Shown here in pieces: positions 15,480-64,000 of a stretch of DNA of 64,000 bases. The notes under the pieces were generated by a model. That model was not told where the DNA came from. It searched no databases and saw nothing but the letters and a program-made list of their open reading frames with translations. Both the position numbers and the translations under genes were made by a program. Each line of letters begins with the position of its first letter. The first letter of the stretch is position 1. This DNA is from Trichoplax sp. H2 (taxonomy: Eukaryota), in assembly GCA_003344405.1 (NCBI GenBank), contig NOWV01000015.1:310001-374000 (forward strand). The letters are read 5' to 3'.

Positions 15480-17348
15480 CCTACATATATTCATTGAGGG
15501 CTGCAAATACAAAAACTAACTAAAGCTAAAGTTTCATAGTATTTCTTTAAAAATTTATTTACTTGTTCACGAAAAAATTATTGCACTGATTTGATTTTGA
15601 ATAAATATAGTTACATTATTACAATAACAAACAAAAGTAGCAGTTTATTTAGTCTTTTAATTCAATTAACCAATCAGTATCAATTTGAGGCTAGTCAATG
15701 ATTTCTGAAATGAACTCCTGAGGGTTAAGTAAACTTATAGAAATTTTTGTTTCTTCACGTACGATATCAGTAATAGGATTATCTAGTAGTTAGCAATCAC
15801 TGAATTAAACTGTGGAAAGCTATTCCAGCATTCAAAATATCACTATATCTTTTCACATTAATAACTTCTTTATGGGCCTTGATGTCATCCAATACCGCAT
15901 GATATCTGATCCTTGAAGGAGAACACATTAAATTTCAAATATAGAAATGGAACCAGAAAAACAAATCAAGCCTACAAATTAAGTACCATTCATAACATAT
16001 CTGTAGATCACAATTTTATAAGCTAACCTATTGCCTTCAATAAAGACTAATAAACATCAATACTCTAGATTAACACCTAGCATAATGTATCATATAATAT
16101 TATAAATCATAATCATAAACTCTAATCTAACTTTGATAAACCTTTAAAAATGGGGTGATATTTAATTTCCATAGGCATAGATTACATTTTTAGCATTTTT
16201 TGAATGGGTAATGTACTATTTTTTATTTGTATCAGCTTGCCAAATAATTTAGATTATCAATTTAATGAGGGGATTTCTTTCGAAACTGTAAACAAGAATT
16301 TAAATAAAGATATACAATGGTTACAATTCTAACTGATTAGCTCTTGTAAATAGTTTATCCGTTCCAACATTACTTTTTTACAATAGTTTTTTTCATCATT
16401 GTATACCACTAGCTACATTAAAAATTTGTACTACGTACCAGATTTCTCATCCTCTATTTCCATTCTTTTAAAGAACTAGTACTTGTTCAAAAGCTTTATT
16501 TTACAAAGAATCTAAAATCTCTTCCTTCCTTACTCGAAGAAAACTGATTTCACTTAAAAACAGTGAGAAATACTTCTTAGCCCTTTCTACTATCAAACTT
16601 CTAGTCAGCGTAACTGGTCAAAAAAATACTGCCCTTTGTAAATAACTCAATATAACGATTTCTTTGTGATCTACCTTAACATAATATGAAATTGACCACA
16701 ATATCAGGTTGGGTATTTAGATCGCTCCGTAGCTTTTAATATATTCTTAAATATAGGCATTTTTTTATTGGCTTAGTATAGAAATCTGTACTGAGTCTGT
16801 TTCAACTATACTCAAACACTGTTATTCTCAGTTATTTATAGTACACACAATTTTCGCAATTTCCAATCTATTGCAATTACATAATCTATCATGGAATATG
16901 TGGTATCTAATACTACAATCCTGTTCTCCGCATGCGTTGCATATCAAAAGTTATAAATACTGATGATTTTTGTCTCCAATTTGTTAGTTTTACCTGTCCA
17001 TGTTAGTATCAACGCACGCTGTAATTCGGTAGCTTACATGCTGATCTAGCAACTAACGCACTACATTTTACACAGTTACTATCTACAATAAAGTATCCAT
17101 CTTTCCAATAAATCCCTAATATAATTCTGTGAATGGCTACTAAGTCCACATTTGCAGACTATTCGAACCCTACATTACACAAAGTAACAAACAGAATACT
17201 GTAATTGTTAGCGATGCAAACTTAAAAAGCAAACAAGAATCCGTCACAAGTCATCCGGAACCGTTCCCAGTAAAAACGACCTTGCAATTTAAAATTTATC
17301 TAAATTTTTCATTCAATTATAAGGATTTTAAGCCTTTCCTATATTACC

Positions 17349-41900: not shown

Positions 41901-44900
41901 TAATGGAGATCCAACCCATAGCTATATTAAACCATTGAAATAATAATGGTTTCGAATTATAATTGATATCATACTTCTTCATATTAGTTTCATTATTTTC
42001 CTAAATTGAAGACATAAACCAATGGGCAAGTTATTAACTTTATTCTGAGTAAATAATAATTAAAAAGAATGATATTTTAGAAATATTAAAGCTCGATCCT
42101 GTGAGCTTACCTTGACTTTATGACCTATATTTTAAAATAAAAAATGGTATCGCATTGTTAAACATTTACTTTTACGGACTTAAACGCCTATAATTCTATT
42201 CTTTATACCTGTATTCTATTTAGTAAATTGGCAAAGTAGATGCAAAGTAAATCAAGACATATTTATTCCCTATTTGAATGTTTAATGATTTTGGACATTG
42301 TTCAATTTCATTCAATCTGATATAATAATTTATTGAGTTATATCCAAGCGTTTGATACTTTAGTACGTTCCAAAGGTAGGTATGGAACCCTATCGGTTCT
42401 GAAGCTATAATATTATAGATTATTTGAAAGAAAGATAATACGATACTTTTGCAACTTCTAAATTTAGTTATGGTATCCTATCGGTACTAAAACTATAACA
42501 TCATAGGTCATTTGAAAGAAAAAAGATACTAATTTTTTAATTCTTAGTTTATTAGTGTAAAACACAGTTATCCAGTAGTACAACTAAAATATAATTTCTT
42601 TAGAAAGCATGACTCGGTGATTATTGGCATCATTTCTGCGCCTACTAACGTACTCATACGTGAGTCTGCATCATTTTAAAGATTTCTTGGCTAATTCAAT
42701 TTTATTAGCGTGCAATTTGCCTTGTTTAATTTACTATCCACGAAGTAAGTTAATTCCAATCTTCTGATTTATATTAACCGTCGATTTCACATTGCGACAT
42801 TATTCAAAAAGCATTAATTGCATTCCAAAAGTAAAACAACTATACTTGAAGTGAAGCAAAACATATTTTTAAAAGTTAGCCTTAATGAAGTAGTACAATA
42901 CCGTATGAAGTTCGCCAGCACTGCTTAAGGGTTGATGCCTGCTCGTAGGTTTGACAGCAGATAATGTTATTTCCTATAAATTCTTTCAACACTTCCATTG
43001 CAGGTCTTATTGTTTGGGGCTGGAACAAAAAAATATAAACATGTTTCATTTGCATATTATTCTATCCTACTCATAGTGATATTTATTAACTAATTTAGAT
43101 ATATTCTTATAGTCATTTTAATCTCTCGTGATTTATACCTAATTAAATAATATATATAAGTTATTAGCATAAATATAATCTTAAGAATATTCAGATAAAA
43201 ATACAACCCATTCAATTATTAATACCTTTCGCTAATAATCCCACAACTTTTTACAGTAGAAAGTACTGATGACTATATTTCATTTAGAGCCTTGGTCTTA
43301 CCTTATTACCGCAAGACGTTACGTTGGCGACTTTATAAGCAGCTTGATACAAACACTGTTAATCCAAAATGGATCAAATTAGGTGACTGATAAAAATTAT
43401 AGATCTGATTCCGATTTAAGTTATAACTTTTACCTATCAATATAAACTATTATTAACCATATTAAACCTATTTTATTACAAAAAACACAAACGCTACGTA
43501 AAATAATTTTGAAAATTCATATCACAGGAAATGGTGCCGATAGATTCTTAGTAAACCGCCGATAAAATAGAGCAAAAGCCAATGTTTTGCGATATAAACT
43601 TGATTAAACATAAGCTAAATATTTATAATCTGGGCTAAGAAAATCCTACTAAAGCTGCAATTTTTGATTAAAATACTTTGGAATTTTTTAAGGCTTGAAA
43701 AATATTTACGATCAAAAATGCTTTTAAATATATCGGCAAACCTGAGCTATCCAATGCCCATTATGTTCTAATTCTTGGAAAGTGGAAATAAAAACTTCAT
43801 ACAAACTCTCAATAATTCCAAGGACATCACTAACATAAACTGCTACTTTATGAGAAGATTCGAAAGCTTCCTGATAAAATTGACTCATCAAAATTTCATC
43901 GATATCCATAGAAGCCAGCAGTAAGTCGTATTCATCAAAGAAGCGAGAAAAATTCTGTAAAGAAAGACAACAAATCACAATAACTAAAGGCGATATTGGC
44001 TGTTGATAATAGTAGATCGCTATTGATGTAAAAAGAAAAAACTAGGCATTAGATCAGTAGCCCAAGCTTAAGCTAAGTAGATGATTAAATTAAGTATGAA
44101 ATTTCAGAACGTTGAAACAAAGTGATTAATAGGCTAATACTCAAAGTATTATTTGTTAAAAGTGACCATAACCGCACAAGAAACTTGCTCGACTCCAAAC
44201 AAGAAAAATAGTAGCAGTAAAAGTTAGTTATCACCGTTATTCAACTTTGACATTCGGTATTTTATGTCAATAGATGAATAAATGAATACGAAATAAAAAA
44301 TTAAGTTGCTAGAAAGATAATAATAACATTCGTATTGATTTCTTCCCAAAGCTTTAGTGTATTTACATGCAGGTTTACTTTAGCATCTTAAATCGTTTTA
44401 TAATTAATGTAATATGTTAAATAGAAAATAATCCATTATAAAATAGATGCTTTAAAATTTTCTGCTAAATTTTAGCCCTGCACCTATTCCCGAGTCATGA
44501 AAGCGAATGAAGTGGCTGTAAATTACTTTTATTATCCGCAAAATGACTTTCTTAGCTTAAAGAAGCTACTATATTTCAAGGCATTATAAAAACTGCAACC
44601 CAAAATCTACGTCTCAACTCATAAAGAAAACCTAAGTTTTATTACTAGTTGGCTTGTTTAAGTGTCGTATCATCTAAAGGATAATAGGCTTTACGCTTCT
44701 TTAATGCATACTAACAGCAAGATTCTTGCTGAAATACATTAAATCACATATGGATAGGGTAGTTAACAAACTGAAACATGGTAATATCACAGTTCTTTGC
44801 TCCTGTACACTCTTACAAGTATATTTGAGAGCTAATTTGAAGTATTTAGATATCGTTTGAAAATATCTTGAGAATTACTTTACCAATAATATTACTCGTT

Positions 44901-47900
44901 ATATTGCTTCAATATATTACAAGCTTAAAATGAAACATTCTGTCGCAACTATAAATGCATAGTTACAAGAAATATATAGCAATAAAGTGTAAGGCTAGCA
45001 AAACTGTTGGCATAATTAATTTATGAAGCAGCTCATGACTATCTAATAATCCCAAAATAAGCTTTCTAATCTCCATGGCAATCGGTCTTTTTCACTAATG
45101 GCGACCAATAAATTTTAAATCAGACCATGAAGCTATATGAAATAGAAGTACTATTTATTATTTAATTACGATTGCCAATACATGACCAATTAAATTTTGA
45201 TTTTCCCTATTGTTAAATATGGATACCTCTCATACATGATGGCTATAGCGATAAATATTTGTCAAATTTAAAGACGAAAATATGTACGAGTATTTGTTAA
45301 ATCCCTTGTTAAGGACATTCTTTATTTTAATAAAAACAAAATCAAGGCCTATTGTAAATATATAATAGAAATTTTAGACGGTAGAATTATACCAGAAATG
45401 AAAAATTAATAGGCTTCTAAATAGTTTTAAAATGAGATCCCCATTCGTCTTTTCATAGAACAAATAAAACCCACAAAATCTAATTTTGACATCACTTTGA
45501 TACCAAAGGCTTTTAATTTGTCAAGTGACAATCAAACAGAAAGTATCCGGAATAATTTTAAAAGACGATGATTTATGTCACTCTATTTCTGGATACTGAT
45601 GACTTTTGAATCAGACAGCAGATGTTACCAGGATAATAGACTTATATTTAATCTAATTAATTTTTTACTTATATGTTGCAATAAATAAATATTAAAATAT
45701 ATTACCACGATTACAGGCAGGCCGTCAAAGTTTATTTAAATGAATCTTTTCGATTAATCAACACAATTACGATAGCTATTTATGGATATCTTTCCCAGAA
45801 TATACTATTTCACTCTGAATAAGTTAGATCATTCGAAACTATTTTAATAAGACAAATAAACATTTCATCATATATTTATTGCTGAGAAAAAATGTGTAAG
45901 AGTTAAAATCACCTCACGTAGGGTGAATTTTCCCATTTATATTGAAAAGATCTAATTTGGCTGCAGAGATCTGAAGTCTTTCAAATACAATCAGAGGCGT
46001 ATCACTTAATTCATAAAATATTGCCTCCATCTTAACAAATTTATTAAATATTATATCTTTCGAATTTAAATAACTTTCTATATTCTAGCAGTTTAGCTAT
46101 CAAATCTTTCGTGCTTGAAATCTCGAAATCGCTCTCGATGTATTCTATACCACATGCACATAATTATCGAAAGCAGGGCATTTTATTCGAAAGCAGCTGT
46201 TACAAAAATTAGGCATAGAAAGTATAAGCATTCAGTAGCAATTCAGACCATTATTTAGACAAAAAATTACCGAAAATTAAATTTAAAACGAAAGAAGGTG
46301 AAAATGACTGTTCTCAGATATTTAGATCATTGTATGGTATTCCCAAGTATAAGTACTGGTAAATTATTAGCTAGACTAGTAAGATGTGGCATGAAAGCAT
46401 GAGACTATTTATTCAATACATGCAGGCCACTGTAAAACAAGTTATCCCATTATCTGACCGTTATGGTACTAAATTCAAGTACAAAAACTTCCAAATACCA
46501 ATCTTTACTTTCATATAAAGCCTATCTATCTAAATTTTCTAATTACTAAAATTTAACAGGCCACTTAATATCGATATAAGTCTACAGTAAATATTAGCAC
46601 TCAGTTAAAAATAGTATGTCGTTAAAATGCGACAAGTATATTACAAAATCTTATTTTTTAACCTACAAACGAACCCTATCTACGTAAATTTTCTAATTAT
46701 TAACTTTTAATCGACATTAAATACCAGCATAAGTCTATCGTCGATATTAGTGCGCACTTAGGTGCATATAGTTAAGATAAAACAAGTACAGTATTAAGTC
46801 TTAATTTTCAAACTTCATATGTAGCCTAGCTATCTAAATTTTCTAATTATTACACTTAATATAACACTAAATAACGACATAAGTTTATAGGTCAATATTA
46901 GCACTCAGTTAAGGGTAGGATATTATTAAAATCTTAATTTATAAATCTATTCAAATTAACTAGCATGAGGTAATTGATGGACGTGTAATGATTAAATCAA
47001 GACCTATAATCCAACTAAGTTGCATGATAAATTTATTTGGAGACTAAAATACCCGCTTTGAGTAATAGCTGATCGCAGGAGATTTATCGGCTGATGGTTG
47101 AATAAAACTGTAATATAAGGTATATAAGATTTGCATATTATACACTAAACCATTTACAGTACGGTGCTTTTAAAAATTCTTGCATTAAGAAACTGATTTC
47201 TTAATTTTATGCTATTTATCCAAAGTTCAAGAAGCGTGTCATCTAGCAATAAAACTAAAATGAGGGTCAAATCATATATACCAGTTAAATATACCAAAAT
47301 TTTAAAATATGATCATTTCTGTCACGCGGTTACCAGCAATTCTGATGTACTTTTCTTAGCGTATGATTTATTCATCTCTTTGTTAATAAACCACATTCCT
47401 ACTGTGAAACAGGCTATCTACCCGTAAGTTAGTTAACTAGAGGTATTTAATAAAGCTAATATCTATCAAATTAGAATTAAAATGTGGTCTTTAAGTTATT
47501 TTACCACTATTACTAAAACCTTCTCCTACAGATAGGCTCCATATAACTCATCACTTACAGCAATTCTAGCTTCAATCTGAGTAACTTCTGGACTGCGGCA
47601 GTGACAAAGATCAAAATCAGAATTATTTAACCAACGCCTGATAAGACTATGATTTGGTTGACAAGGCTGCTTGGATAAGCCACATACTATTCAAAGCGGA
47701 CAAAGCTATCATCACAATTTAATCCTATCCATTTTATATTTTAAAGTATAAAATATGCAATTTGGTAGAAGACTGTTACAAGTCAATCTGTTCTAAATTT
47801 ATGAAGCTTCCATTTTACTATCTGCTTTAACCGATTACTATTTCATTTACGATTATTTTTCCAGGTACACCTATTATAAAAAATTTGCTATTTGAAAGAA

Positions 47901-47981
47901 ATACAGAAAGTTCTTACCCGACACAAATACGCAACAGATACTCAACAGTATCCACCAGTCTATTTTCAAACCCTTAGCCAT
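38966..47981 (-). CDS. Family-B (secretin/adhesion-like) 7TM GPCR with signal peptide and a short Cys-containing ectodomain
   Basis: Phase-consistent exon chain (internal coordinates approximate): 47981-47918 (MAKGLKIDWWILLSICCVFVS, signal peptide), 47686-47559, 45977-45918, 43955-43742, 43355-43302, 43020-42902, microexon 42124-42111, 42000-41861 (TM1), 40780-40669 (TM2), 40435-40279 (TM3 LCIAKGIVLHYMILACFTCMFVQ; TYFLIGW), 39950-39866 (LPTVP), 39742-39682 (CWL, TM5), 39600-39467, 39360-39186 (TM6/7 FVFVALNCLLNFLVLLFYCILDKQ) and 39079-38966 (stop). Confidence 0.8.
41223..41615. repeat. Diverged intronic tandem duplication, period about 215 bp
   Basis: aaatatttctaagctaattttaatcgtg...catgatcag...cagtcttgtgctg...ctctcaacaaaacc at 41223 recurs as aaatatttcgaagctaattctaaacgtg...catgatcag...cagtcttatgctg...ctctcaataaaatc at 41439. 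Confidence 0.8.
42380..42540. repeat. Diverged tandem repeat, two units of about 90 bp
   Basis: tatggaaccctatcggttctgaagctataatattatagattatttgaaagaaa versus tatggtatcctatcggtactaaaactataacatcataggtcatttgaaagaaa. Confidence 0.7.
46500..46940. repeat. Diverged minisatellite, three units of about 152 bp
   Basis: taaattttctaatta occurs at about 46531, 46685 and 46835, each followed by similar ataagtcta/ataagttta and atattag(ca/tg)c segments. Confidence 0.8.
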
Positions 47982-50900
47982 TTTAATCCTTTTCGGAAAG
48001 AGCGGTGGAAAATAATTAGACTTGCAGGCTAATTTAAAGTAATATATTGCTTAGTTATACTAATTAAGGCAAAGAAGGAATACTTTTCTACGCTGGAATG
48101 AAGTATCTCAATGTGACAAAATGGGCAATATAAAGAATCTGCATCCATATATATATTTATGTTCTAATTAGAGAATAATATAACGGAATTAGATCGCTTA
48201 ATCTAATTAAAGCCAAAATAGAAAAGCTAGTTAGAATAAAGCGAAATAAACGTACGCATAGCTACAGTATTCAATATGTTGAATGCAAATCAAAGCTTTG
48301 TTATTGCTATTCTTATTATTTGGCACGATTATTGCTTTAAGATGAAGGCAAAATTTTTTGATTAATAGTTTCAGTGAATATTCATAGCCGCGATTTATAG
48401 AGCCGATTAATTGAAGAGTATTGTTTGAAATATTAAAATATAGATCCAATTTATTCTCTAAATGATGGAAAACCAAAATATCTTTCATATGAGTGATTTA
48501 TTCTTAATTACTAATTCATTTCCTATCAAACAATTTTTACGAATGAAAATTCCTGTTTTTGTATTGCTTACTACTTAATCTGCTAATTAAATTTAAGATA
48601 AAAAATATATTAAATTATTAAGCTCGTAATAAAAGCATATGTGCGTAGTGTAATAATTGTGACTATTTCGTTAGCTTAGACTTTGCTCTTAAGCTCCTGC
48701 TATTTGATTTAGTTTCTGCAGTTTCAGATTAATCTCAGTCTTCTAAATCCTAAACTGTTATATAATTAAAGCAATAATTTATATCGTAATGTTCTCAATA
48801 TTTAAGCTACATTCTTTATTATAATCTATCGTAATCAACTCAATGAATAAAGTATACGGTAAATCATTGTATCGCACATGATTAAGCTAATTGTTTGGGG
48901 TATATTTCATTCGAATCTCTAGCTGAAATACTTTGACAGCTAGCCCAACTCAGTTATTATTGAATACTCTGAGCTGCAAGACAATATTTGCTTTATTTTA
49001 TTTCAGAATAAGTTAATATATTTGATTAAGCTATTACTACAAAGGTATCAAATTTCGCTATATGTGTTCTAATTGTTTACCTCCTCATAAAAGGTGAAAA
49101 GAAGAGCAATTTTCCATAAAATCTTATGATCGAAACTATTGTGCGAAGCCTTGTAATCCTGCCTCACTGCAACAGTAAATCGTAACAGAATGATAGATGT
49201 AAATTAAATCAGCAGATCAATTTTTAAGTGACCGAAAAGCAAGTAATAAAAAATTCTATGATTTAATTCTCATGTTAACGACTAATAACAAATCAAGAAT
49301 GTAACCGTCTCTGCCGGATTTTAATTAATAATCAATAAATAGCTAGAATAGAACTATTATCTGAAATAGTTGCTGCATTTTACCTCAACGACTGTTGGCG
49401 AGCCAATATATAAATTTTGACCCTTTATGAGACTGGATAGCATTGTTGCAATTACATATTATTATGACTTAATCTTGTCTATTAATAAAGGTTAATCGAC
49501 TTTACAATTGATATAGGTACTGTAATTAGCCTATTATCCATTTTAAATTAAAGCTGAATCAAAAAAATTAGCCGCTACTTTTAATTATACGTAAGAAGTG
49601 TAAATAACATGAATCTTTAAATAGATTGTTTCATCAAAAATGACATGCAAAGATCGACTAAAATTATGGACTAGCGAAATGTTTTCGTTTAAGAATTTTG
49701 AAATAACTTGAATCATTTTCTTGCTACCACAGCAATTACACTAAAAATACCTTACATATATTCTTTTAACCTTTAACAAATCTAATAATTTATCAAATAG
49801 AACAAAGATGAATTTAATCAGCCCAATGGTTCAATAATTAGATAGCATAATATTTATCAATACACAGTAAAAGGTTTATAATGGAGCCTATACTTATTGT
49901 CAAGTTAGAAAAATCATGTCGAATAAATAGGTATTAATTAGTAGATAAGTAATAAAAGCAATATTATTGTCAACTAATTGATTGCTATTTTAATTAAGTT
50001 CACGTAGTTCATAATAGTACGAACATATAGCTTAGAAAAAGTTGTAGAATACACCATTACTAGTTTCTAAAAGTAATTTGTACGATGATAATAATTATTT
50101 AATTCCTAAATTTGAACGTATTTTATTTAAAGTAATAAATTTTATAGCACTCAAATAAACCTTGATCGCTAGCACCGAGTCCTACGTAAAATCATTAACT
50201 TTAGATCAAGTTTTATAAATAGAAAGGCTACAGAATAGGAATGTTAAAATTATATTCGCATAACTAATTATAATGTTCATCCGTAAAAATGGTCTACAGT
50301 AATTTTAAATAATTTCTCTAATATTCTTCTCGCGAATCACTGCCTGCGATAGTACGGCCATAAGACAGGCTACTCTGCCTCATGTTGCATAGAGACTTTA
50401 ATTCTGGTGGAATGGTTGTGATATATACCAATCACGAGATTCCAAATTTTAGAAAAATAAGGGCTTTATTCAATCTTATACAAAGATTAACTACATACAG
50501 CTCTACTCTAGCCGAATACTACTACTAAAGACAATAATCTAAAGTTGCATGCTTTTATACTTTCCGTAGCATTCGCAGCTACAATCCGCGCGGCAACCTT
50601 TTACCTTATTTTACACATAGTTAAATTATTCTTAGTAAGACTATTCTACTGCGGACCATCATTAATCCAATATGGATACGACTACAGTACTTACGTAGAC
50701 ATTATTCACACCAGCCAAAGTGCAATGAATTAACCATATCCTAATATATGATTTACAGTTCTATTTTTAACTATAGCCTTATTAGTAATTCAACACCTTA
50801 CTGTATATAGTCATCTGTACTCTAGCATAGAGTCTATATCACTACAGTCTATAGTTATAGCTACTAAATATCTCTTAGGATAAATATCTACCGTACATTA

Positions 50901-52749
50901 TACAAAACATGGCTAACAGTCTACAATCACAATACTAGTTACATTACAATGGTATTATGGTGCAAGTGGTAACATAGAAATTACTTGTACTCCTTTTGGC
51001 TGTACTTGTTACTGATATCATATTCAGTCTGTAGCAATTATCAATGTAGGATACCCATTTAATAATGAAATATTCGTAACTACATCGGAAATGAAATTTT
51101 GCATTTGTAATATTGCAAAATGATTTAAAATCTAGCTCTACATAGATATATATATATATGTTTATGTGCCACAATCACCCTTGCGACACAAGAAAAGAAC
51201 TCAGTACTTATAATAAACTTTACGTTAATCCGTAAAACTACTTCTTCAGCCTATGGTATAGTAACTGGAATCCTTGCGAAGTACTAACTCGCTCAGCACG
51301 CTATACGATATAAAACTATCACACAACTTAGCCTTAACCTGAAAATCACTTTTTATTGATCACAGTCCTTCTTATATACTCTTTCAGTAGTTATAAACAT
51401 ACTTACTATGCTACCAACATATTTCAATAACAAACATGTTATTATTACGATTAAATTATCAAATACGGACATTCGAGGCAATAAACAATTTCATACGTAA
51501 ATCTACTTCGGCTGTAAGTCCTGTCAAGCTCCTATGTTCTCGATACTTACTTATAACATATTACAGTATCATCATTATATCATAATAACTTAGGGTATCA
51601 CTAACAACAATTTCTAAAGTAGTAGTTCATACTTCTTAAAAGTTGAAAACAAAATGTTATCATAAATTGCACATCCATATTTAAGTTGTTTTGATGACTG
51701 TGACATTATGAAATGGAATTTTTAAGGGCGAAATACCGGTATTATTGGATTTCTGTCGCATGTGCAATTGAGTATCTCACATTTATGTATGATATAGCTA
51801 AAGTGTCACATAAATAGCGCTTATTACGATAATTTGAGAAGATATGATAGTTCTGTTAACAGCAAATGAGGTAATGTAAGTACCTTATAAACACTGATAC
51901 ATTATAAATGAGGATTACCATAATATTCTAATCTCAAATACGATAAAACCACTGAATACAGTAAAAATATAAAATAACGGTTGTCTTAGTTATGGACTTG
52001 AAAAAAACAATTTGAAATCAATATACATTAATACTATATCACAGAAATCCTGCTACCTTACGTTAGATTAATGAGCGATAGATAAAAAATTAACATCAAG
52101 AAAAGAAGCTTATAAGCATGCAATATTTATTGGCTATAATATCATTTGTGTACTACAATCAGTCAACCATTACACTTGTATTATTATACAGTTAGGATAA
52201 ATAATTTTAAATAAATAGAATCTATTTTGATTTTGAATAGCCCTATATTTTTCTTAATTATCACTAAAATCTTTGATGACGTAAGCTCCAAATGACTAAG
52301 TGAATTTAGACAATTTCCTAATACTATCTGGTAAAATGAGTCAGTAAAGCTTTTCTAACGTACGGATCTCTATTAGTATTTCATATTACTCAAATTTTTA
52401 ATTCTTAAGATAGAAATTTTAATAATAAATTATCGTTAATACAGTAAACTCGGTCGCAAAATTAAATTTAAATCCGCGCTATTCTAACAGATTTTTATTG
52501 TAATATAGTAATCTAATGGTTTGAATACTTAGCGAGGAATGTCATAGTTCTTGCTCGGATCTATAATAACTTGATTAAACTAAATGTTGGTTTCCTCTGT
52601 ACACTTGGCACGATTCCACTTTTTATCTAAACTACTTCGGATCTAACATTAAAATAAAAAATGGACTCAAATTATTATTAATAAACGTTTGGACTCACTG
52701 CACAGCTTGAATACTATGATTGGTTACTAAAACAGTAGGCTCATGAGTG

Positions 52750-54605
52750 ACTTACTTAGTGGTCTCTTAAATAATAAATGATGACAAGAAGAAGATGTAG
52801 TAAGGTATTTAATGTAATAAATAAAAACCGCTCGTAAAATGACGATAGGAAACAAAGCTGCAAAAGAATAACCACTTAGCAGCCGCAGTAACCATAACGA
52901 TAACGCCTTCATAAATTTTTTTTTTATATTTCCTAACAAGTATAAGACAAATACTTATAAAAAAACATGCATGTCCTATTCATAGGTAATTACAGTATTA
53001 ATTATTAGAACCTGCTTTGAATCTTCGCTTTGTTCTTTGAAAGTCATCACTAAATTAGTGATAGGATCCTGATGTGTTTTAGCGTTTGACAATATATAAG
53101 TTTCATGATGGCTATTAAATATTATGAAGAGAAATGAAATCTATTTTGCAAGAAAACCATAAAGCATTACGATGAAATATTGACTCAAGCTGTAAAGGAG
53201 GTAAGAGATAAATTTCATTCACTACTATTAAATTTAAGCTATAGTTTCTACTCACTAGATATACCGTTAGAATAATGGCTAACGGAATAAGAAAATATAA
53301 GTTGATGGTACCCTGCGATCCACAACTGTAACCATCATAAAAGTGAAACAATTAGATAAATAAAAATTGCTGTATATAAGGTTAGCCAACAGAAATACCG
53401 GTAATTAAAAGATTAGAGTAAGCTCAATAATATAGCATAAATTTTCAGAACACGCTCTTATCATCGACGGTATAAGATAATAGTAGTATTTATAAATTTT
53501 TATTTACATTTCTTTGCCAAAGACATTGATAATAGCGCTATAAATGCAAGATTTACTAAAATAGGCAATAACCATAGGAACAGCAGGTATCACTAAAACA
53601 GTAATTAAGTTAGATTAGAAAATGATAATTTATATCTTGCTTAAATAAAAAGAGTAAAATTTATTTTTAATGGCGTTGCAAATATTAAATTTGACGATGA
53701 ATTCATTTAAAATAAAGGATATTTAGTATGTTTAAAATTAGTATATACTCTGAATTCAATGCAATTAGGTTATTTTTTATTCGGATGCATTTTGCAAAGT
53801 TTGTATCTACGTCTGTGTAAGCGTAGCTATGTCGCAAGTATATTACAAATGCAATACTTAAGTATCATAGTAATACTTGAAAATTCTCACTAATTAGATA
53901 AATCGAACTTACCCAATCTGATAATGATATACAGGAGTTTCCACCATCCATTATTGCCTATATGATGACCTTTTCGGTAGCAAAAACCATGAATGCAAGA
54001 GACAAACATACATGTAAAGTACGTTGTGACCAAATATTGTAACGCCATTCCTTTAGCCTTACATATCTATAGATTTGATCAAAAACTTTTTAAAAGCCAA
54101 TCAGCAGTAGAATGAATTTTTAACCTTTCACTTACTATATGACTTAAAATTTTTAAAATTAATCGTTTATAATTTAGATTACGTGCCGTGTCAGCAATTT
54201 TAATGCTGCAATAGCATGAAAATGATAAAAGAGTAACGATCGTAAGAGCTATTAACTGAGTATACAGAAAGGCTAGAAGCCGGCAAAAATTGAATAATTA
54301 TGGTAATCATCACGTCAGTTAGTCCAAATGCTAGACTGAAATTGCTTCGCATCTTCCATTTCGCGCTATATGGTAAGCTTAAAGAATTATAAGTTGCCAG
54401 GTATTAATTTCAAGTGAAAGTATAGCAGATATTTTTAATTTATACAGCTAAATTTTGGAAATAACTTTCCTCACCTTAACGTTAAATATATTCCCCAAAC
54501 CACCAGAATACTCATTAAATTTATTCCACCCATGACAATATTAAAGAAATAAAATAACGATGAGCACAAGCAATCGAATTTTATACTCTTGAATGATCCA
54601 TTATA
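52750..54605 (-). pseudogene. Decayed paralog of the neighbouring family-B-like GPCR (7TM exons only)
   Basis: The exons match the intact receptor one for one: LFYFFNIVMGGINLMSILVVWG (TM1), KWKMRSNFSLAFGLTDVMI (TM2), ICKAKGMALQYLVTTYFTCMFV (TM3), IPAVP, LYFLIPLAII and WLFFCSFVSYRHFTSGF. Lesions are a phase mismatch at the ICL3/TM6 junction, a 1-nt deletion at about 52825, and TAA at the donor where the paralog has CAA. No ectodomain exons found. Confidence 0.65.
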
Positions 54606-55401
54606 GTCCTTTAATGATTGCAATATGCAATATTAAGTATGCTTAATTAATACTGATTTGATTCTGTAAAATTTTGGTAAAATAAAGTTTTAGCTCCATC
54701 ATTCGACTGAATACTTACATATAAATTATCTGCTATACAAGAAAGGGAATAAAATATGATAATGTTAATGATAGCCCTAAAATTCAAAAATCAACTTAAT
54801 CAACTTTATAAGGTTGTGCTATAAATGCATTAACTAGAGCATCTAAAAAAGCTTAAATTTCCTTAAGTTTGTAACTACTTGTTTTCTAATTCTTCATATA
54901 ATTTATACTTGGCCAATAATCGACAAAAAATGCTAGTAGCTGTAATTTTCAAATAGATGTTATCAAGCTACTTCCTTATAACAATCTCTAGTGTATTTCT
55001 AGTAATCGAGACAATCACTTGGCACAATATACCGCTAGTAAAGATAACGGGAAAATGATATGATATACGTGTACCCTTTGCGCATGATCGTAACGGTTCT
55101 GTAGGAAGATTAGTAACAGACTAATAATTAATTTATAAAGGAATGGTAATTCAAGACATGATCTAGTCTTGCTACAAGGAGCTCTATCTACAGTCTATAA
55201 GCTTAAACTGAAATGGAATGCAAAGTTAATTTCATCCCTTAAGCAATCGTTGACAGCATAAGGAGGCATTAGCACCTATGGATAGATGTCTTAATCGGTG
55301 GAAAAGGAAGATATATTGGCATAGTCTACAATCAGCTCTTAATTAAGTTGATATCTTGGTTCTATTTACAAGCTACGAAAGTGTGTAGAATTGGCTGCAA
55401 T

Positions 55402-58400
55402 ATGGGGTTGTCTTCTCAAGTTTTACAAGTTATCGATAAATACTATCAGAAATTAATTCATGAGATTCCATTAGCAGACCTCATTGATGACTTTGCAAGT
55501 AGGAATATTCTGTCAGAATATGAAGTCGAAGCATTTCATTTAGATTTACCGCCTATTGCAAAGCAATTTCAGCTGATAGCGATATTAAAACGCAAAGAGA
55601 GCTCTGATTTTTACCAGTTTTGTCAAGCCTTACAAAACCATGCAACAGCATCCATTCGACAGTTAGGAGTAATGTTACAAAATGATAGTAATATAGTAGA
55701 TTTGATAAGACAAGGTAATTTTGCAATAATTAAGGTGTAACTTTAACAGAGGTATTAATTAATTAGACTAAATACTTAAATCAACCAACGCCTATAATGT
55801 AGTAAACTGTTTTAAATAAAGTCAAAATAGAGATTAGCATTCATAATCGATGTAACGCTAGAATGTTACCGGAAATTAAATCGATTTCCTAAATTATGTT
55901 CAGTTTTCTTTTTGTAACGTCCAATTTTTTTTTATCAAATGAACAGAGCAACTTAAAGATTCAACGTCCGGTAAGTAGTTAGAGACAGATCTTGCCGGTC
56001 AAGAATAAAGCTATTGAAATGCAAGAATAATTATTTATTTCGACTGCAAATGCACCCAAGTACATAATGATTGATTATTCAAAGTAGTAGCTTAGAATCT
56101 CAATAGAGACTGAATTTAATACCTGTTAAAGTACCAACTCTAATGACGCCACGTGCCAATATGTCTTGATCAGCATTTCAATTATACTGCAGTTATGAAG
56201 TAATAACTTGTAGCGATTCAGAGATGCATAAGTAAAGCTGATATCATACTAAAAGCAGTTGCAGATGGAATGTGGAGTATCAATTCCGATCCAAACGAGC
56301 AAAAACCTTACTTTAAATGTGAACGGTAGTAATAAATTATTTTGTGGTATTGCCTAACTTAATTTCGTACTTATGCCTTTACATCCTATAATTACAAGTA
56401 AAACTTTAGCAAGATTGTGTAGAATTTAATATAATAAAAATTTGCTATATCGTACTTAGTCCTGGTTCACCCTTTATAGCCTTACTCTTAAGTTGCACAA
56501 TTTTGCTCTAGAACGTCCACTTGATAGAACAGATCGTGGTTAAGCACCGTGTGTATGCAGTTTAGCACTATTCACAATTACATAAACTTTTGTACAGTAT
56601 TAGAAAATCTTTACAAGTCTTCTACCGCTACCCAATACGTATATTAAATGCTGTAGTAAATGAATAGAAGGCAGTTAATCCATAAGATTCTGTTTATCAT
56701 TAGATTTTGACAGGATTTATAGTAACCCTATGGATTTACCATGTGAAAATATTACCGGCAAAAATTTCCCCAAGTGGAAGATAACAGCGTAAGTTTGCTG
56801 AATGACGTCTAAATAAATTTCTATCATGCACCTATTGACTAAGCTTATTCCTAAACATGGCATAAAAACAGTTATACTGATCGAAGAATTGCTGAAGATA
56901 CCCGTCTATCATCTATGGCAATTGGAACAAGTAGGTGTGATGTTTCACCTAAATGCTATAAATCATCAGATGAAATTTTAAAAATTATATCTAGCAACAA
57001 CAACGCTACAAATGACGGTGAACTTGTGGTAAGATTAGTATTTTGATCCAATTCAACGTTACTTTAAAAGTGCTAAATTAAAGGTTTATGCGTACGATAA
57101 ATTATCAGAAAATTCTGTCACTCAACCGCATGCTTTATACGGATTCATTTTTACAGGTAACCGACTATCAAAGTACTCAAACGACTTATAGACTGGAATT
57201 ACCAAAAATACTACTAAATCAAATATTAATATCATCGGACGGCAAATTTATAGCTTACTCCGTTGAAAGCGAAGACAGTCAAGATCATTCCTCTAACCCA
57301 ATTGATTCAGATAGTGATGAAGAAATCTATAATGTACGTTGAAATCTCATTTCCTTGATCATTCATTTAACTGTGGTACATACTTAGGAAATGAGCTAGA
57401 TATATTTCAATGAAGAAGTATACAAAAATTTTTGATACATTCGTAAAATGACAAGAGCTACATCTGCCCTAACATTAGAAAGTAAAGAACTATTAGTTAA
57501 TTTATCATTTTTCTTCATAGTTATTCTCAATAGTCCTTTACGACTCTGCAATACTCATACTAATATTAAAAACACTTCAAAAACTAAATTTTACAACAAG
57601 TAATCTTTCAAATTATTTTGAAATATGCTCATTAATTGCTCATGTGTCTTTCTTCCTGTAAGCAATAGATTGAAATATAATCTTAACGCTAATAAAGTAG
57701 CAACAATAGGTCTTATCTAAAATATCCCTGTAATTAGATCGAAATGAAATCCGAAGAATGGAGAATTTATTGCACCTGTACGAACCAGCAACTCCAGTTT
57801 ATTCATCAAGATGGAAAGAAATCAATTTCCTTATTATGTCGTTTACTAGAAATTTACCCAGTAACATCCAGCTATCCAATTTTGATGACGATATCATTGA
57901 ATCAGCAAAATCTTAACGTAAGGAATACATAACTATATGATAGACTGATATAGCCATATTCTTGCATTGGTCTATATAAATCAACAAAAATTATGATAGA
58001 TATCAAATATAATAAATATCAAGCTTTCTGCTAGACCTTAGTTTCTCAGCTTACTATAAAACAACTACGAATATATAATAATACTAAATCAAATTGAATC
58101 AAAATAATACCGTTTTAGGTAATTTCAAATATAACTGATCAAAATTAATAATAAAATATAGTAGATATCTGTCAATATTGGTCCACAAAGTATCCACCTT
58201 AGCTTTATCCTATAATTAAGCAAATTTGAAAGTTGGATAATTTAAAATCAGATTAAATCAACATATGAGTATACCAGCATGTGGATAATTTTAGATATTA
58301 GTGATCATAATTCCGAATAACGTAAAGTTAATTCAAAGCATAATGCACTATTTTAGTCTTCTTCTTATCTAAGCAATTAAAAGCTTAGCAGCCTTACATT

Positions 58401-61400
58401 ATTGCATTAATTTTAATCATTGTAGATTTGGGAAATACAAGATAAGAATATCAAGCAAACTCGACAGACCATTATGGCTGCCCATTGCAAGATATTTGGA
58501 TGTAGATTTATAGCTAATAGCAATAAAATTATCGTATGGTGGCCTATTGATAACCGAAATTTAATGCCGGCCGCGGAAGATTCTTCACTAAGCATTGAAT
58601 CTTGCCAAATAGAAGTAATCTTAATCCTACGTAGAAACTTTTGCAGTAATCTACCCTTGATAAATTACGATATTAATTAAGTCATGCGATAATGATTTTA
58701 CCAGATTTGGAATCTTAAAGACTGGCACCATCATCAATCATTTCAAGTCCTTTCCTCCATAAACTATTTAGATGACAAAAATGGATTCGCCAAACCTAAA
58801 ACGATAGATGACGGCAATTTATTAATGAAAGTCGAATATGTAGACCAGAATATTCCAATAATCGTACTAAAATATGATAATTTACTAACCTATTTAGTGG
58901 TAGAAGATAATCAAACAAGCTTCATCGATTTTACTTCACAATTTACGACGTCGTTGCAGCTTTTACATAAATGTCATGATGCCCTTATCGAAAATCTAAC
59001 CTTGTCCCATGATCATCGATTAATTGCATTCTCAACGAATTATGCCATTAATGTACGTTTGTAACACGTAATTCTAAGGTTTATGACATCTATTAAAGTG
59101 TGAAGGTTGCTTTTTTCTCATATTCACTTCCACAGCCTGATTGATACGTTACTTTTTAATTTATTCGCAAAGAACAGATATTTAAGGTGGCTTGTGGAGG
59201 CATTCATTCCCATTTGACAATTGACACCATTGAAAATATATCAGAATTAATGTTTGTTCCAGATAGTAACCACTTGCTCACTTATAGCAATATTTTTAGC
59301 AATGTTTTATCCCGTTATGATATTACTGGTAAGGAAAAAATTATCATCACGTGGAATTACAATTTTTATATTCGGTAAATGTGTATGAATTGAATCTCCA
59401 TTTAGGAAAGCAGCATGGCTGGAAGAAAGGACCTAATCAACATAGTGGCAATTATGATCAGATAATCGTAGCTTCAAGTTGCACCTTTATAAATGGCATT
59501 CCTATTATTGCCTTATTAATAAGAAGTCATCCAAAGATTGATTATAAAGTATATGTAAGTTTCTTATAGGCTGAAATAAATCGAAGTCAAGTATATATTA
59601 AATCCGTTCTTTTATCTTATCAAATTTGCGATAAAATAATTATAGTTTGTGATCACTCAAAATACTTGAGGTATTCTTTTTTACTATTATTGGCAGATTT
59701 ATCAAGGCGAAACCCTGAAAGCTACTTCCAATTTTGCATTAGACCAAGAATATGACGACTGCTTCCTCTATAATAATAATGACTCCATTAATCTTTACTA
59801 CAGCCAGCATTGCGTAAATCAGCAAAGCTTAGAAGATAGTAAAAGTAAAGTTGAGCACCGGCACGTCAAAATCAAAGAGGCTAGTCAATAATCCTACAAG
59901 CTAACTTGAAAAATAAAAATGAATATTGATAATGTCACGATACCTATTTAGTTCCCTTATCGTACATCATAAGCCTACCATAGATTATAGAAGTAAATTC
60001 AATTAATGCACCAATCCTCTGTTCAGTACGAGCGAAATCGATTCGATAGGAATAAATTAGAATTAACCAAGATCAAGAACTAAGTAACTTGAATATCCAA
60101 CGATATAAAACTATATGATTCATTAAGTAAGAGATTAATCTGGTTCAAAAATCTCTGAGTTTTTATCGATCGTTTATAAACTAAATTAGTACATACTCAA
60201 ACATAAGCTCAAGGATTATATCGACAATTTTTTCAAACCTATAATTTGATGTTATCGCTCTATCTCAGATTAAGTGACAACTTAATGCATCACTAATAAA
60301 TCACTAACATTTTTATTCTGATAGTTAACCGGATTGCAAACAAATCTACGTCAGAGAGGACAGTCTGAATTCAAAATAAATACAGACTCCAATCAGTTAT
60401 TAATACTCCAGTCAAGTTTTAGAGAATCTGATCAAACATACCTATTTCTAATTTCAGCTCTGGTAAGTTAATATGAAACTATCATCAAGATAGCGCATTA
60501 TTTGCCTTTTATTTAGTAAGATATTACTAAAAGACAATAAGATTTACTCTATTTCATTCTACTTTAGTTTGATGATGACAGTGAACAGATCATTGTAGTT
60601 AAAATCAATTTTTCCCGTGAAGAAAAACATACAATCTATTTGGATGATACCGCAGCGCATCGATTTACTCAACTAATTTACGCAGATTGTTACAATCTAT
60701 TTATTCAACAAACGATCAGCGAAGGAGGCGATGAATGTGTCATTAAAGTAAGCAAATATTAATAAGACGAATAAGATTCTCCGAAATTTGAAGGTCTATC
60801 ATGGGCCATAATCTTTAATTGCTGTACTTTTACTTCAGCATCAAATGAATCAATCTCATATGAGATATTATATCGAATTAGATTATTTGTATATTACTTT
60901 AACTATGTATATTCGCTTTAGTGGTATAAATTAGGTGATGGAATAACCTCAACACAATTGGTTAAATCTCACTATTACAGCTCAATATATGATGGAATAG
61001 CCTTTAAAATTACCATTCCTATTTCCAAGAGTGCAGATAGCATTAAAGTTAATTTATCACCACTGTATGTAGAGGATCAAGATGAAATGATTAAAGAATG
61101 GGGGGAAAAAGAGGCTGATTTGTTTGTTAGTACGATAGAATTAATTGTATAATATTATGTTATTGAAATTGATTTATGTGCCAGCTCATTTTTCAATACG
61201 ATAACACCATTACGTCTAAAGTATTCTCATAAATTCATCTCTAAGCTCAAGAATTGTCGGCGCTACGATCGTGAACGCTTCTTGTTAAGCACAGAAAATG
61301 AATTTACGGTAACAACTCTACATTCACAGATAAATATTCTGATGTAAAAACAAATCAATTTTTTAGAGGACTGATTAGTCCAATGTGTTGTTATAGATGT

Positions 61401-61687
61401 TTAACGGCCACCTCGTCCTGGTTATGAAAGGCTACGGCGAACAGACTCGAGAATTCACAGAATACTTTGAACTTAATAGCTTGGAAAATTTAATCACATC
61501 GAAATACTTCATTATTGTGGATTGGATGAGTTACAAAATCTTAATCTATGAAAATAAAACCCTTGCATTAATGCAGACTATTGAGGCACCAGCGATCAAA
61601 CCTAAAACCATCATAGGCAATCAAGAGCAATCTCTTTTTATTTGTCAAACAGATAGCAAGCAATATTATATTATTAAGGCCTTATAA
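55402..61687 (+). CDS. Gene C: CARD + ~55-aa linker + divergent WD40-like beta-propeller paralogous to gene B, lacking NB-ARC
   Basis: Exon 55402-55714 is CARD-like (VIDKYYQKLIHEIPLADLIDDFASRNILSEYEVEAF...KQFQLIAILKRKESSDFYQFCQAL). Linker exons are 55947-55970, ~56265-56325 and 56714-56788. Propeller exons from 56872-57028, 57157-57333 (ILISSDGKFIAY), 57738-57917, 58426-58614, 58705-59052 (LTLSHDHRLIAF) and 59179-59328 through 61397-61687 align exon by exon with gene B (last exon IIGNQEQSLFICQTDSKQYYIIKAL versus ILGNENQSSFICRTNDREYIVYKAI). Confidence 0.8.
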
Positions 61688-62299
61688 AATTCAGCAAATT
61701 AGAGCTGATGTAGCATTTAATATTTATATATGAATAATCCTTTAATCGAGTTGAGCACCATGACCAATTGATCACCGAATATGGATCATATTTATATATT
61801 GCATACTTTTAATATATACTTTAAGATCAGAATCAGATTTCATAGAGTCTTTTGTTAAATCTTTTAAATTCTGTAGTGACTTTTTTTTATATCGTATACA
61901 TATTTATTCTATTGATATTATTATGAATATGCAACCTCTAAACAAACTAATGATTTAAGGAATTGACAATAACATTTAAGAAAATGCATCAGTAGAATCT
62001 CGTTTAATGCTAGCGTATTCTAAATCAGCATGAACAACCAATCCCCTCTGATTATAACGATGAAATAAATAGAATAAGATAGAGCTTCAGATTTCGATAT
62101 GTCACTACAGTGTATAGTAAAGTAGCGCTTAAAAGACGCGCTTGAGTAATTTAGAAAATAAATAAATTCTAATTTATTCTTAATCAGTCATGGATTATTT
62201 TGCTTTGGTGTTGCAGCAATCTTAGATGTAATGTTGCATAATTGGTAATATTAAATTAAACGGACGGAAATCAATTTCTCACTATATATCGAATATAGA

Positions 62300-62920
62300 G
62301 TAGCAGGAATTGAAATAGAATAACCTTGTCGCATTTGCATATTGTCATAGCTGATGGATTTAAATCAAATTACCATCTTATCTGCCATTACAAATACTCG
62401 TATGCAATCTCTGCAGGCCATTGCCTATTCTTGTACAGTACTTTCAATCATTTTATCTGAACTTCGGTATGCAGATTCCACACTTCAATCAAAAATTGAT
62501 AGAGCAGATTAAAATCACTGTATACTTCAAATTCTGCGGTAGAATATCCCTAATATTGATTTAAATCATAGAGGCTATTGATCGTCAACTTTGGCTCAGT
62601 TCCCCATATGCACCTGACCGACTGTTACGAATTCGATCATGATGATAATATTACTCCTGTATATACCTAGAATTTAATTGATATCTCACCGGCAGATAAT
62701 GCCCGCTTGCTCTTCAAGAAGGATCGAGCAATTTAGCGTAAAATAAATTCAACTTTAACAGAAGTTTAATAACCTACAGGTTTGCATTAGGCTGCAAAAA
62801 TCCATGGCAACTAAGCGGAAATAAAATACGCATGCGTATGCCACCATTGCTCTCCACGTCTCCAACTCTCCATGTCCCCTGTCCAGGTTCTACCTGAAGA
62901 AGTCGTCGGTCCTTTTATAA
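62300..62920 (-). other. GC-richer, exon-like segments of a possible small unidentified gene divergent from LHPP
   Basis: Open segment aaag|GAC CGA CGA CTT...GCA AAC CT|gtaggt (DRRLLQVEPGQGTWRVGDVESNGGIRMRILFPLSCHGFLQPNAN) and further splice-like signals. I could not build a convincing full model. Confidence 0.2.
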
Positions 62921-63239
62921 CCTATAGTTCCACCATCGAGATGGAAATCAGGAATTAAAAATAAGTCAGGGGCCTAAGCATACAACCTAACTAAGTGATA
63001 CAAGCCAAGAGAAGAACATTTTATACTTTATGCACCATAGCAAGCTTGAGTTTAGTCCAAGGTAGGTATGCAATGTCTATTCTAATAAGTCTTTGCAAAA
63101 CAGCATCATGAATTTGTTTGTTTACTTTTTCGATGATAGTTCTTAAGCAACTCGGTTGTTCCAATAGAGTTCGGTAAAGAAATAATATTTTACCGCAGAG
63201 GTTGTCAAATTTTGAGGTATCCCTTGAGCAACTATCAAG

Positions 63240-64000
63240 ATGGCATCATCAAGCTGGCTACAGCGAGGTAATAATCGTTTGCAAGGCTTGTTGCTAGATA
63301 TATCTGGTGTTTTATACAATTCTGGCGTTTCTGGTGGTCAAGCAATTGATGGATCTGTAGAGGCTTTAGCAAGGTATGAGTTCTAAAAAAATTATCTGCT
63401 AGTTTCATACCCTTAACATTATGGAAAACTAGTAAGGCGGCTCATACTTAAACTTAATGCATAGCTTCCTTCCATTGTGCAAAGCAAGCACGTATCATAT
63501 TACAGTGTAATATTTGTCAAGAATTGCATCGGCTGGTGAAGTGTAACGCAATGTAGAATTAAGCATCAATCAAATTCTGTGATATCTTAAACGAGTTGCA
63601 TTATTCTCTAGAATACTCATGATTATTAATCTATAATTATAATTTATAATCATTTATTAGATTGAAGAAAGCACATTTTCCCCTTAGATTGTGCACAAAT
63701 GAATCTCAGTGTTCGATCGATACATTAGTTAAGAAATTACAACGTTTAGGATTTAATGTTCAGGAGGAAGATATCTATTCACCTATTAAAGCAGTTAAAA
63801 GTTTTTTGATAGAAAACTCACTACGCCCTCATTTGCTTGTACATCCAGGTAAGGCAATAATTGGCACCAATCTAGAATCAAGTATATTGAAATGCCATTA
63901 AATAAATTGTACTAATCCATTTTTATTTATCGTTTCCCCGAACGCTAACCCTTGGCTCTCCAATAAATTTAAATAGACGTCTTGGATGAATTTGTTGATA
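63240..64000 (+). CDS. LHPP: Phospholysine phosphohistidine inorganic pyrophosphate phosphatase (HAD family IIA), 5' part
   Basis: Exons 63240-63373 (LQGLLLDISGVLYNSGVSGGQAIDGSVEALAR, with the LHPP-type DISG motif), 63661-63848 (LRLCTNESQ...LQRLGF...LRPHLLVHP) and 63977-end (DVLDEFVD) join in frame. Confidence 0.92.

Follow-up and report, generated by a model that had tools for sequence, protein, structure and literature searches.

Ring assembly by Apaf-1 depends on nucleotide and is driven by its nucleotide-binding oligomerization domain (NOD); the CARD recruits a CARD-caspase, and the propellers, in a 7- plus 8-blade layout, bind the trigger. CED-4 of C. elegans is an Apaf-1 family member with a NOD and without propellers, and its splice form CED-4L is inhibitory, acting against death. 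ICEBERG/CARD18, COP/CARD16, INCA/CARD17 and the POPs are duplicates that keep a death-fold interaction domain without the effector or assembly part, and they are thought to compete. Here we describe a gene of the placozoan Trichoplax sp. H2, hereafter gene C, that keeps the CARD and, by predicted fold, the propellers of an Apaf-1 paralogue and lacks the NOD between them. It lies in a window of 64,000 nucleotides (assembly GCA_003344405.1, contig NOWV01000015.1, positions 310,001 to 374,000), an AT-rich stretch (GC ~0.31) with many GT..AG introns; all coordinates below are positions in this window.

The roles of the Apaf-1 NOD, CARD and propellers are described in PMC6321704 and PMC11747288. 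In Trichoplax sp. H2, Kamm et al. 2019 (PMC6321704) counted 42 genes with NACHT or NB-ARC and at least twelve homologues of Apaf-1, some of whose models have no WD40 or CARD, and they name two CARD-caspases. Their screen required a NACHT or NB-ARC, which leaves gene C outside it. Its locus tag, TrispH2_003554, has 0 occurrences in six supplementary files of that paper, and the neighbouring TrispH2_003549 is in the NOD-like table. A paper on fibre-cell immunity (PMC8639732) contains 0 occurrences of Apaf, caspase, apoptos or CARD. A literature text search, with most subscription journals outside its reach, returned neither locus tag of gene C and no NOD-less CARD-WD40 relative of Apaf-1.

Gene C joins a CARD to an Apaf-1-type C-terminal region

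The CARD exon matches the start of TrispH2_003554 (P0001, Trichoplax sp. H2, 934 aa, "hypothetical protein") at 100% identity and TRIADDRAFT_61454 (P0002, T. adhaerens, 801 aa, "CARD domain-containing protein") at 99%. Gene C is TrispH2_003554, in the databases already and yet uncharacterised and undescribed. To establish its exon chain, contigs of four public runs (X1, X4, X6 and X14) were placed on positions 52000-63000. X1 is DNA-like, with an even depth of ~100 across introns and intergenic sequence; X4, X6 and X14 are RNA-like, and X14 is recorded as RNA.

A single RNA contig, X4 record 11 (1091 nt, depth 11.8), spans the CARD exon, the two bridging exons and exons 4-6 (55210-55714 > 55947-55970 > 56704-56788 > 56872-57028 > 57157-57333 > 57738-57880). 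Letters 504-614 of this contig (111 nt = 2+24+85) lie between a piece ending at 55712 (letter 503) and one starting at 56872 (letter 615). X6 record 16 (2700 nt) overlaps it from exon 5 onward and reaches the 3' untranslated region (UTR) at 62183. The joints farther downstream appear in 2-3 runs; the CARD exon and bridging exons are covered by neither X6 nor X14, which are uninformative there. When joined, the 16 RNA-supported exons form one open frame of 943 codons with its stop at 61687, which bears out the claim that a CARD and an Apaf-1-type C-terminal region, with no NB-ARC, share one transcript. The intron at 59880-60324 is GC..AG, the only one of this type in gene C.

The junction peptide ...DLIRQ-EQLKDSTS-DFDRIYSNPMDLPCENITGKNFPKWKITA-YTDRR... 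is identical in the two public models, from H2 and T. adhaerens, which belong to separate genome records. The RNA contigs depart from the window by a few letters, for example 55686 T>C (synonymous) and 57207 A>T (K209N, as in the T. adhaerens model), and probably come from a very close strain. Three of their junctions disagree with the public H2 model: 59052>59178 (3 residues more in the model), 59554>59697 (2 fewer) and the GC..AG intron (10 fewer). The product is therefore 943 aa, not 934. The T. adhaerens model additionally omits three whole exons.

The original prediction, made from the sequence, had placed three bridging exons between CARD and propellers along the chain 55714-55947-56265-56714-56872. 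The RNA contig and both public models show two. The joints at 55947 and 56872 held, whereas the 61-nt exon at 56265-56325 (+) was rejected, being skipped by the RNA contig and missing from both public protein models, and the true acceptor is 56704 instead of 56714. The 24-nt phase 1-1 microexon is present in the RNA contig as predicted, and so is the joint from the phase 2 donor after ...PKWKITA (56788) to 56872.

The ATPase core is absent

The distance from the CARD exon to the first propeller exon was counted directly and is 1157 nt, the length first given. Motif scans of 55715-56871 in all six frames found no Walker A, Walker B or GLPL pattern, again in agreement with the original prediction; the same patterns recovered GSPGIGKT (20868), LFVFDDIW (24010) and GLPLA (24423) in the neighbouring gene, which served as positive controls. 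The longest open frame of the interval in six frames is 50 codons. In tblastn searches (E<=10), 11 NB-ARC-bearing Trichoplax paralogues matched the CARD exon, gave no match within 55723-56857 and picked up again at 56858-56870; over 37000-55400 they returned only noise (E>=3).

The protein tells the same story. Pfam assigned exon 1 to CARD (PF00619, 27.2 bits, E 4e-6 on the exon's open reading frame (ORF)), in line with its first assignment, and CARD was the one domain family found on the product. NB-ARC was absent from the whole protein at E<=1, and neither the winged-helix domain (WHD) nor HD2 (APAF1_C) gave a Pfam match; scans of P0001 and P0002 returned the CARD and a very weak propeller match on the whole protein. 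Of the parts of an apoptosome STAND ATPase, gene C thus has the CARD and, by predicted fold, the propellers, and has no NB-ARC and no WHD/HD2. Over 53543-56196 and again over 56268-63000, the X1 contigs run colinear with the window at a depth of ~100. These two blocks, for which no loose end is reported, leave between them a 71-nt hole (56197-56267) in the second intron, which the RNA contig bridges by splicing.

Gene C probably descends from a full-length Apaf-1

We compared gene C with P0006 (RDD40482.1; T. adhaerens TRIADDRAFT_56066), a 1388-aa Trichoplax sp. H2 protein named Apaf-1. Pfam finds in P0006 a CARD followed by NB-ARC, WHD and APAF1_C between residues 129 and 588, and residues 12-585 match human Apaf-1 (E 5e-33). 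Gene C shares with it the CARD, the tail of HD2 and a C-terminal region of ~800 residues, but has none of NB-ARC, WHD and APAF1_C. Residues 1-96 of gene C align to P0006 1-96 (39% identity, E 2e-16) and residues 14-934 to P0006 484-1382 (28%, E 1e-103), the latter convincingly from about gene C 120 / P0006 585, so that gene C is homologous to the placozoan Apaf-1 expansion. About 490 residues of P0006, covering NB-ARC, WHD and all of HD2 except its tail, have no counterpart in gene C.

The second aligned block opens with the end of HD2, P0006 ..RRWMITGYPDD standing opposite gene C ..PKWKITAYTD, over ~25 residues of that domain. The equivalent exon of the neighbouring gene B ends in KYWMIAG (26829, followed by gtaag) and shares intron phase 2 with exon 3 of gene C, as the original prediction had noted. 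That the HD2 tail and the position of its intron are retained favours deletion from a full-length ancestor over a gene that was primitively NOD-less. An internal deletion between the CARD exon and the last ~25 HD2 residues very probably took the NBD, HD1, WHD and nearly all of HD2, judging from these alignments. We hold the anatomy of gene C, and its origin by NOD loss from a full-length ancestor, with high confidence.

A maximum-likelihood tree of 16 propeller regions (LG+G4, quick search) placed gene C inside the radiation of NOD-bearing paralogues, with a warning from the tool of long branches meeting. Gene C, P0006, P0009 and the neighbour's propeller (P0015) arise there from an unresolved fork, P0006 being nearest by path, and the gene C stem measures 1.07 against a median end branch of 1.06. 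Two earlier comparisons with gene B did not survive. Exon 56872-57028 had been said to match ...KTIGTSQSDTIPRYC... of gene B, but BLASTP against the matching ORF of gene B gave no hit at E<=10; by tblastn the exon does match other paralogues, P0007 (E 2.5e-4, 40% identity) and P0006 (E 5e-5). Nor can gene B stand as a CARD-bearing comparator, for it has no CARD and begins instead with an unrelated region of ~460 residues. We conclude that gene C is a real, spliced and expressed paralogue of placozoan Apaf-1 and a new architectural variant inside a known family.

The C-terminal region is predicted to fold as tandem propellers

The AlphaFold2 (AF2) model was made from the public 934-aa P0001, not from the 943-aa RNA-derived product, on a 33-row alignment, and reached a mean predicted local distance difference test (pLDDT) of 80.2 and a predicted template modelling score (pTM) of 0.56. 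Helices are predicted in residues 5-107 at pLDDT ~90, as in a CARD helical bundle; residues 100-142 fall below pLDDT 50. Between residues 168 and 932 there are 58 predicted beta strands and one helix (802-819), which at four strands per blade would make ~14-15 blades.

Foldseek against the PDB returned tandem WD40 propellers, led by 7mq8_LQ (E 4.5e-18), with the Apaf-1 entries 3shf, 3j2t, 3sfz and 5juy at ranks 3, 8, 11 and 13 (E 1e-15 to 5e-17; 3shf 4.6e-17). The likeness of the gene C propellers to human and mouse Apaf-1 (PDB 1z6t, 3sfz, 3j2t, 5juy) is one of fold. An ESM Atlas structure search yielded generic WD40 double propellers and no CARD-plus-propeller cluster, and feature matches in the same resource were all <=0.83 and serve as leads only. 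Propeller identity, first a guess, is thus backed by fold prediction and Foldseek, and by predicted fold only are the C-terminal tandem WD40 propellers present. The 943-residue product is modelled as a CARD (~1-100), a disordered tether (~45-60 residues) and a tandem WD40-type beta-propeller region (~165-943).

Distribution and conservation

HMMER against 1.84 billion representatives gave 48 proteins at E<=0.001, 18 of them at E<=1e-10; all named clusters among the 13 looked up from these 18 are Trichoplax. Above 30% identity there is one full-length relative, the T. adhaerens orthologue at 99%, and this exhaustive search contained no full-length relative between those two values. Among the 20 HMMER matches scanned by Pfam, none combined a CARD and a propeller region without a NOD. 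P0008/P0056 and P0016/P0063 are propeller-only in both Trichoplax species.

Several other candidates were set aside. The tandem-repeat protein P0021 (E 6.9e-12) has four near-identical repeats that each match 33 linker residues at ~37 bits, and we read it as a chance match inflated by repetition. Most "propeller-only" relatives were rejected as additional NOD-less genes, several such T. adhaerens models being pieces of genes that H2 has at full length. P0013 and P0010 group with full-length H2 models of 1454 and 1243 aa, and P0015/P0060 represents the propellers of the neighbouring gene B.

Five exon-size fragments (P0017, P0020, P0024, P0032 and P0051) share 43-48% identity with gene C; four also match P0006, at 31-36%, and P0024 matched no other paralogue. 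Three more (P0025, P0026 and P0055) are closest to P0006, at 45-56% identity. By these identities the fragments are likely orthologues of gene C and of P0006 in a more distant placozoan. Since the identities of the two sets are similar, both lineages appear to diverge at similar rates. In the orthogroup table of Najle et al. 2023 (PMC10580291), OG_9516 comprises four genes and no more: one from T. adhaerens, one from Trichoplax sp. H2, one from Hoilungia hongkongensis (Hhon_g10069.t1) and one from the H23 species (HoiH23_PlH23_004216).

Expression in a peptidergic cell module

The same source assigns the T. adhaerens gene C, TriadG61454, to module Tadh.pink (membership 0.506) and TrispH2_003554 to TrH2.white (0.719), which together belong to the multi-species module gc018 "peptidergic_zeta" (PMC10580291). 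Tadh.pink also holds TriadG61738 (NB-ARC/APAF1_C, 0.615) and TriadG60918 (APAF1_C, 0.973), and TrH2.white holds TrispH2_009070 (CARD/APAF1_C, 0.796). Neighbouring gene B is in a fibre-cell module (TriadG61449 0.783, TriadG61451 0.894, TrispH2_003551 0.679). The modules differ, which means that different cell types use gene C and its neighbour. In these tables placozoan Apaf-1-like genes are scattered over many modules (fibre, several peptidergic types, epithelia, lipophil), and several rows carry shortened Pfam strings, CARD/APAF1_C, Death/APAF1_C or APAF1_C alone (PMC10580291), some of which may be split gene models.

Features of gene C and neighbouring sequence

Table 1. Features of gene C in window coordinates, with the support for each.
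Feature	Position	Strand	Support
5' UTR (minimum length)	55210-55401	+	X4 record 11 begins at 55210 and stays colinear as it enters the CARD exon; the frame has no ATG from the stop preceding 55273 up to 55402
Exon 1 with start codon and CARD (residues 1-104); phase 1 at its 3' end	55402-55714	+	Pfam CARD; identity to P0006; predicted helices
Exon 2: 24-nt microexon EQLKDSTS, phase 1-1	55947-55970	+	Joints 55714>55947 and 55970>56704 in X4 record 11; both public models
Exon 3: 85 nt; 3' end ..NFPKWKITA, remnant of the last HD2 exon, ends in phase 2	56704-56788	+	Joints 55970>56704 and 56788>56872; alignment to P0006 577-600
Exon 4: first post-HD2 exon, start of the predicted propeller region	56872-57028	+	tblastn with P0007 606-662 (E 2.5e-4) and P0006 599-657; RNA joints
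Exons 5-10: predicted propeller blades	57157-57333, 57738-57917, 58426-58614, 58705-59052, 59178-59328, 59406-59554	+	GT..AG joints in X4, X6 and/or X14; predicted beta strands, high pLDDT
Exons 11-16, including the stop	59697-59879, 60325-60462, 60568-60747, 60922-61125, 61246-61308, 61397-61687	+	Joints in X4, X6, X14; colinear with the neighbour's C-terminal exons
3' UTR	61688-62183	+	X6 record 16 to 62183; X4 record 13 to 62098
CARD-to-propeller interval, 1157 nt, two small exons only	55715-56871	+	No NOD homology, no NOD motif

Upstream, genes A and B look like one gene at 17304-36558, consisting of the ~460-residue N-terminal region (no Pfam family), NB-ARC, HD2 and propellers, with no CARD. 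In the public annotation it is broken into at least TrispH2_003549 and TrispH2_003551, and the pieces share the fibre-cell module. An N gap at 21414-21433 is followed by 21434-23123, a 93.5% copy of 36081-37772 (the last exon of this gene and sequence downstream of it), and the copy is bracketed by a 30-nt repeat at 21377-21406 and 23316-23347. In the public H2 model, TrispH2_003549, the NB-ARC is interrupted in its middle by the copied exon; in the T. adhaerens model the next NB-ARC exon follows straight after the P-loop exon. The copy is probably a mis-scaffolded or duplicated insert.

A paralogue of the ~460-residue region, 44-45% identical to P0004 residues 1-464, lies at 8857-13399, and a Death-domain ORF (13124-13399; Pfam Death, E 2.9e-6) comes after it. 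In one gene the region takes the effector position; in the next, it is joined to a death domain. The minus strand carries two long HlyIII/PAQR-family ORFs (2712-3704 and 6301-7323; Pfam E 6e-38 and 3e-30), which are tandem paralogues. X4 and X6 contigs share a short piece at 52456-52508, flanked on either side by identical loose ends; it resembles an exon of a different transcript, whose remaining exons would fall beyond 52000-63000 or depart from that sequence. An ORF at 63650-63898 with a HAD-like hydrolase match (Hydrolase_6, E 9e-10) is the start of the next gene downstream.

A possible modulator of Apaf-1 signalling

What might a protein with both ends of Apaf-1 and no engine do? The nucleotide-dependent heptamer of Apaf-1 cannot form by that route in a NOD-less protein, and gene C, having no STAND ATPase, would undergo no nucleotide-exchange-driven ring assembly and would form no apoptosome hub by the known route. 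The earlier statement that it cannot self-oligomerise holds for NOD-driven ring assembly only and leaves room for clustering driven by the CARD or by a ligand. We propose that, in one peptidergic secretory cell type, gene C may modulate an Apaf-1-like/CARD-caspase pathway stoichiometrically. The propellers would bind ligand of the class that the full-length relatives bind, and the CARD would engage CARDs on caspases or full-length paralogues while supplying no activation platform. The net effect would be a higher firing threshold in the expressing cells, as expected of a decoy or brake. Ligand binding, the CARD partners and the direction of the effect are what we infer here. As the best overall explanation, a NOD-deleted Apaf-1 paralogue acting as modulator or brake stands about equal chances of being right and wrong; that it is a brake rather than a positive adaptor is a shade more doubtful.

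Several observations weigh against this proposal. Its support is computational throughout. The three 5' joints come from one contig of one run (X4), and on the whole protein the CARD scores 22.5 bits, just under the Pfam cut-off of 23.9. Pfam WD40 does not match gene C, nor does any PDB sequence at E<=1 (0 sequences, human and mouse Apaf-1 included). The CARD-propeller make-up was read in the Trichoplax species; the Hoilungia and Cladtertia orthologues are counted by membership of OG_9516. Expression confined to a peptidergic cell type is unlike the prediction for a general apoptosis brake. Cytochrome c binding is presented as doubtful even in full-length non-chordate Apaf-1 (PMC4445527), and the WD40 region of human Apaf-1 alone is reported to be sufficient for inflammatory signalling (PMC11747288), which favours a positive adaptor.

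Such an adaptor is the main rival. Gene C would then be an ATP-independent sensor whose propellers bind a multivalent ligand or partner, so that the tethered CARDs cluster and activate CARD-caspases or other CARD proteins without a NOD ring. Its anatomy would be the same as for a brake; the long disordered tether suits a recruiting arm, a single copy in four species together with cell-type-specific expression fits a dedicated signalling role, and the human WD40 result lends some weight. The computed evidence does not tell a decoy from an ATP-independent adaptor. Against the adaptor, no ligand is known, and we know of no CARD platform that works without an oligomerising core or a filament-forming CARD. 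Kamm et al. did not find a RIPK1/2 orthologue in Trichoplax sp. H2 (PMC6321704). We consider this adaptor rather unlikely. It is improbable that the machine is split, a NOD-bearing paralogue without a recognisable CARD giving the ring in peptidergic-zeta cells and gene C and TrispH2_009070 supplying or regulating the caspase-recruiting arm. Gene C does share modules with TriadG61738 and TriadG60918 (Tadh.pink) and with TrispH2_009070 (TrH2.white) in the tables of PMC10580291. However, co-expression modules are broad and the memberships moderate, the Pfam strings of the table miss divergent CARD or death-like domains, so that "CARD-less" is unsure, and no contact surface is known between such proteins; the physical neighbour, gene B, is in the fibre-cell module, so chromosomal linkage lends no support. 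We give similarly little credence to the wider idea that placozoans assemble death or immune switches for particular cell types out of incomplete Apaf-1 components, giving a combinatorial apoptosome that is split by nature and in which NOD-less CARD proteins plug into or compete on the ring, or that gene C alone is the first natural NOD-free Apaf-type sensor, its CARD clustered by ligand.

Could gene C instead be a transcribed relic, its function ended by the NOD deletion and its frame open through recency only? No function is known for it, and the T. adhaerens and H2 proteins are so alike that the pair says nothing on constraint. Against this, a 943-codon frame over 16 exons has been kept despite 28-39% identity to the nearest paralogue, the predicted fold is confident, and the propeller stem is no longer than those of NOD-bearing paralogues. 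There is one copy in each of four placozoan species, and the likely distant-orthologue fragments are as conserved as those of P0006. A weak hint comes from X1 differences at 55402-57368: 2 of the 16 listed fall in 756 exonic letters and 14 in ~1140 covered intronic letters (42 further rows are unlisted). With the frame intact, the fold confident and the orthogroup present in four species, a relic is very unlikely, somewhat more so than a split machine. Least probable of all is an artefact of assembly or annotation, with NB-ARC exons lying in collapsed sequence or CARD and propellers belonging to different transcripts. The 71-nt hole between X1 contigs lies inside the second intron, and the neighbouring gene shows an assembly problem at its N gap; the colinearity of the X1 contigs is otherwise unbroken from 53543 to 63000, with even depth, one RNA contig runs from the CARD exon to exons 4-6 across the hole, and the T. 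adhaerens model, built on another genome record, carries an identical junction peptide. That RNA contig and the matching peptide all but exclude an artefact.

Implications for the Apaf-1 family

As a NOD-deleted paralogue, gene C resembles the CARD-only and PYD-only decoys in being a duplicate that has kept its interaction domain and lost the assembly part, but those decoys are small, single-domain proteins and gene C keeps a putative sensor region of ~780 residues. CED-4 is truncated in the opposite sense, with the NOD kept and the propellers missing. Closer at hand is TrispH2_009070 (CARD/APAF1_C), from the same genome and expression module, which also keeps the CARD and misses the nucleotide-binding part; it retains the helical HD2 domain that gene C has lost. 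In DNA-triggered inflammation, a WD40-only construct of human Apaf-1 is described as signalling from the sensor region without a NOD (PMC11747288). That construct is engineered, was used in human cells, has no CARD and acts via RIP2 (PMC11747288), which is given as lacking in Trichoplax (PMC6321704).

Apaf-1 and NLR-type switches are defined by their nucleotide-driven core, and gene C keeps both ends and deletes that core. It offers a simple natural test of what sensor and recruiting modules do alone. The textbook picture is unchanged unless biochemistry shows NOD-free signalling. Surveys keyed to NB-ARC or NACHT miss part of the placozoan Apaf-1 repertoire, and gene C, together with a second truncated paralogue in the same module, suggests that the Apaf-1 expansion of placozoans includes regulators besides triggers.

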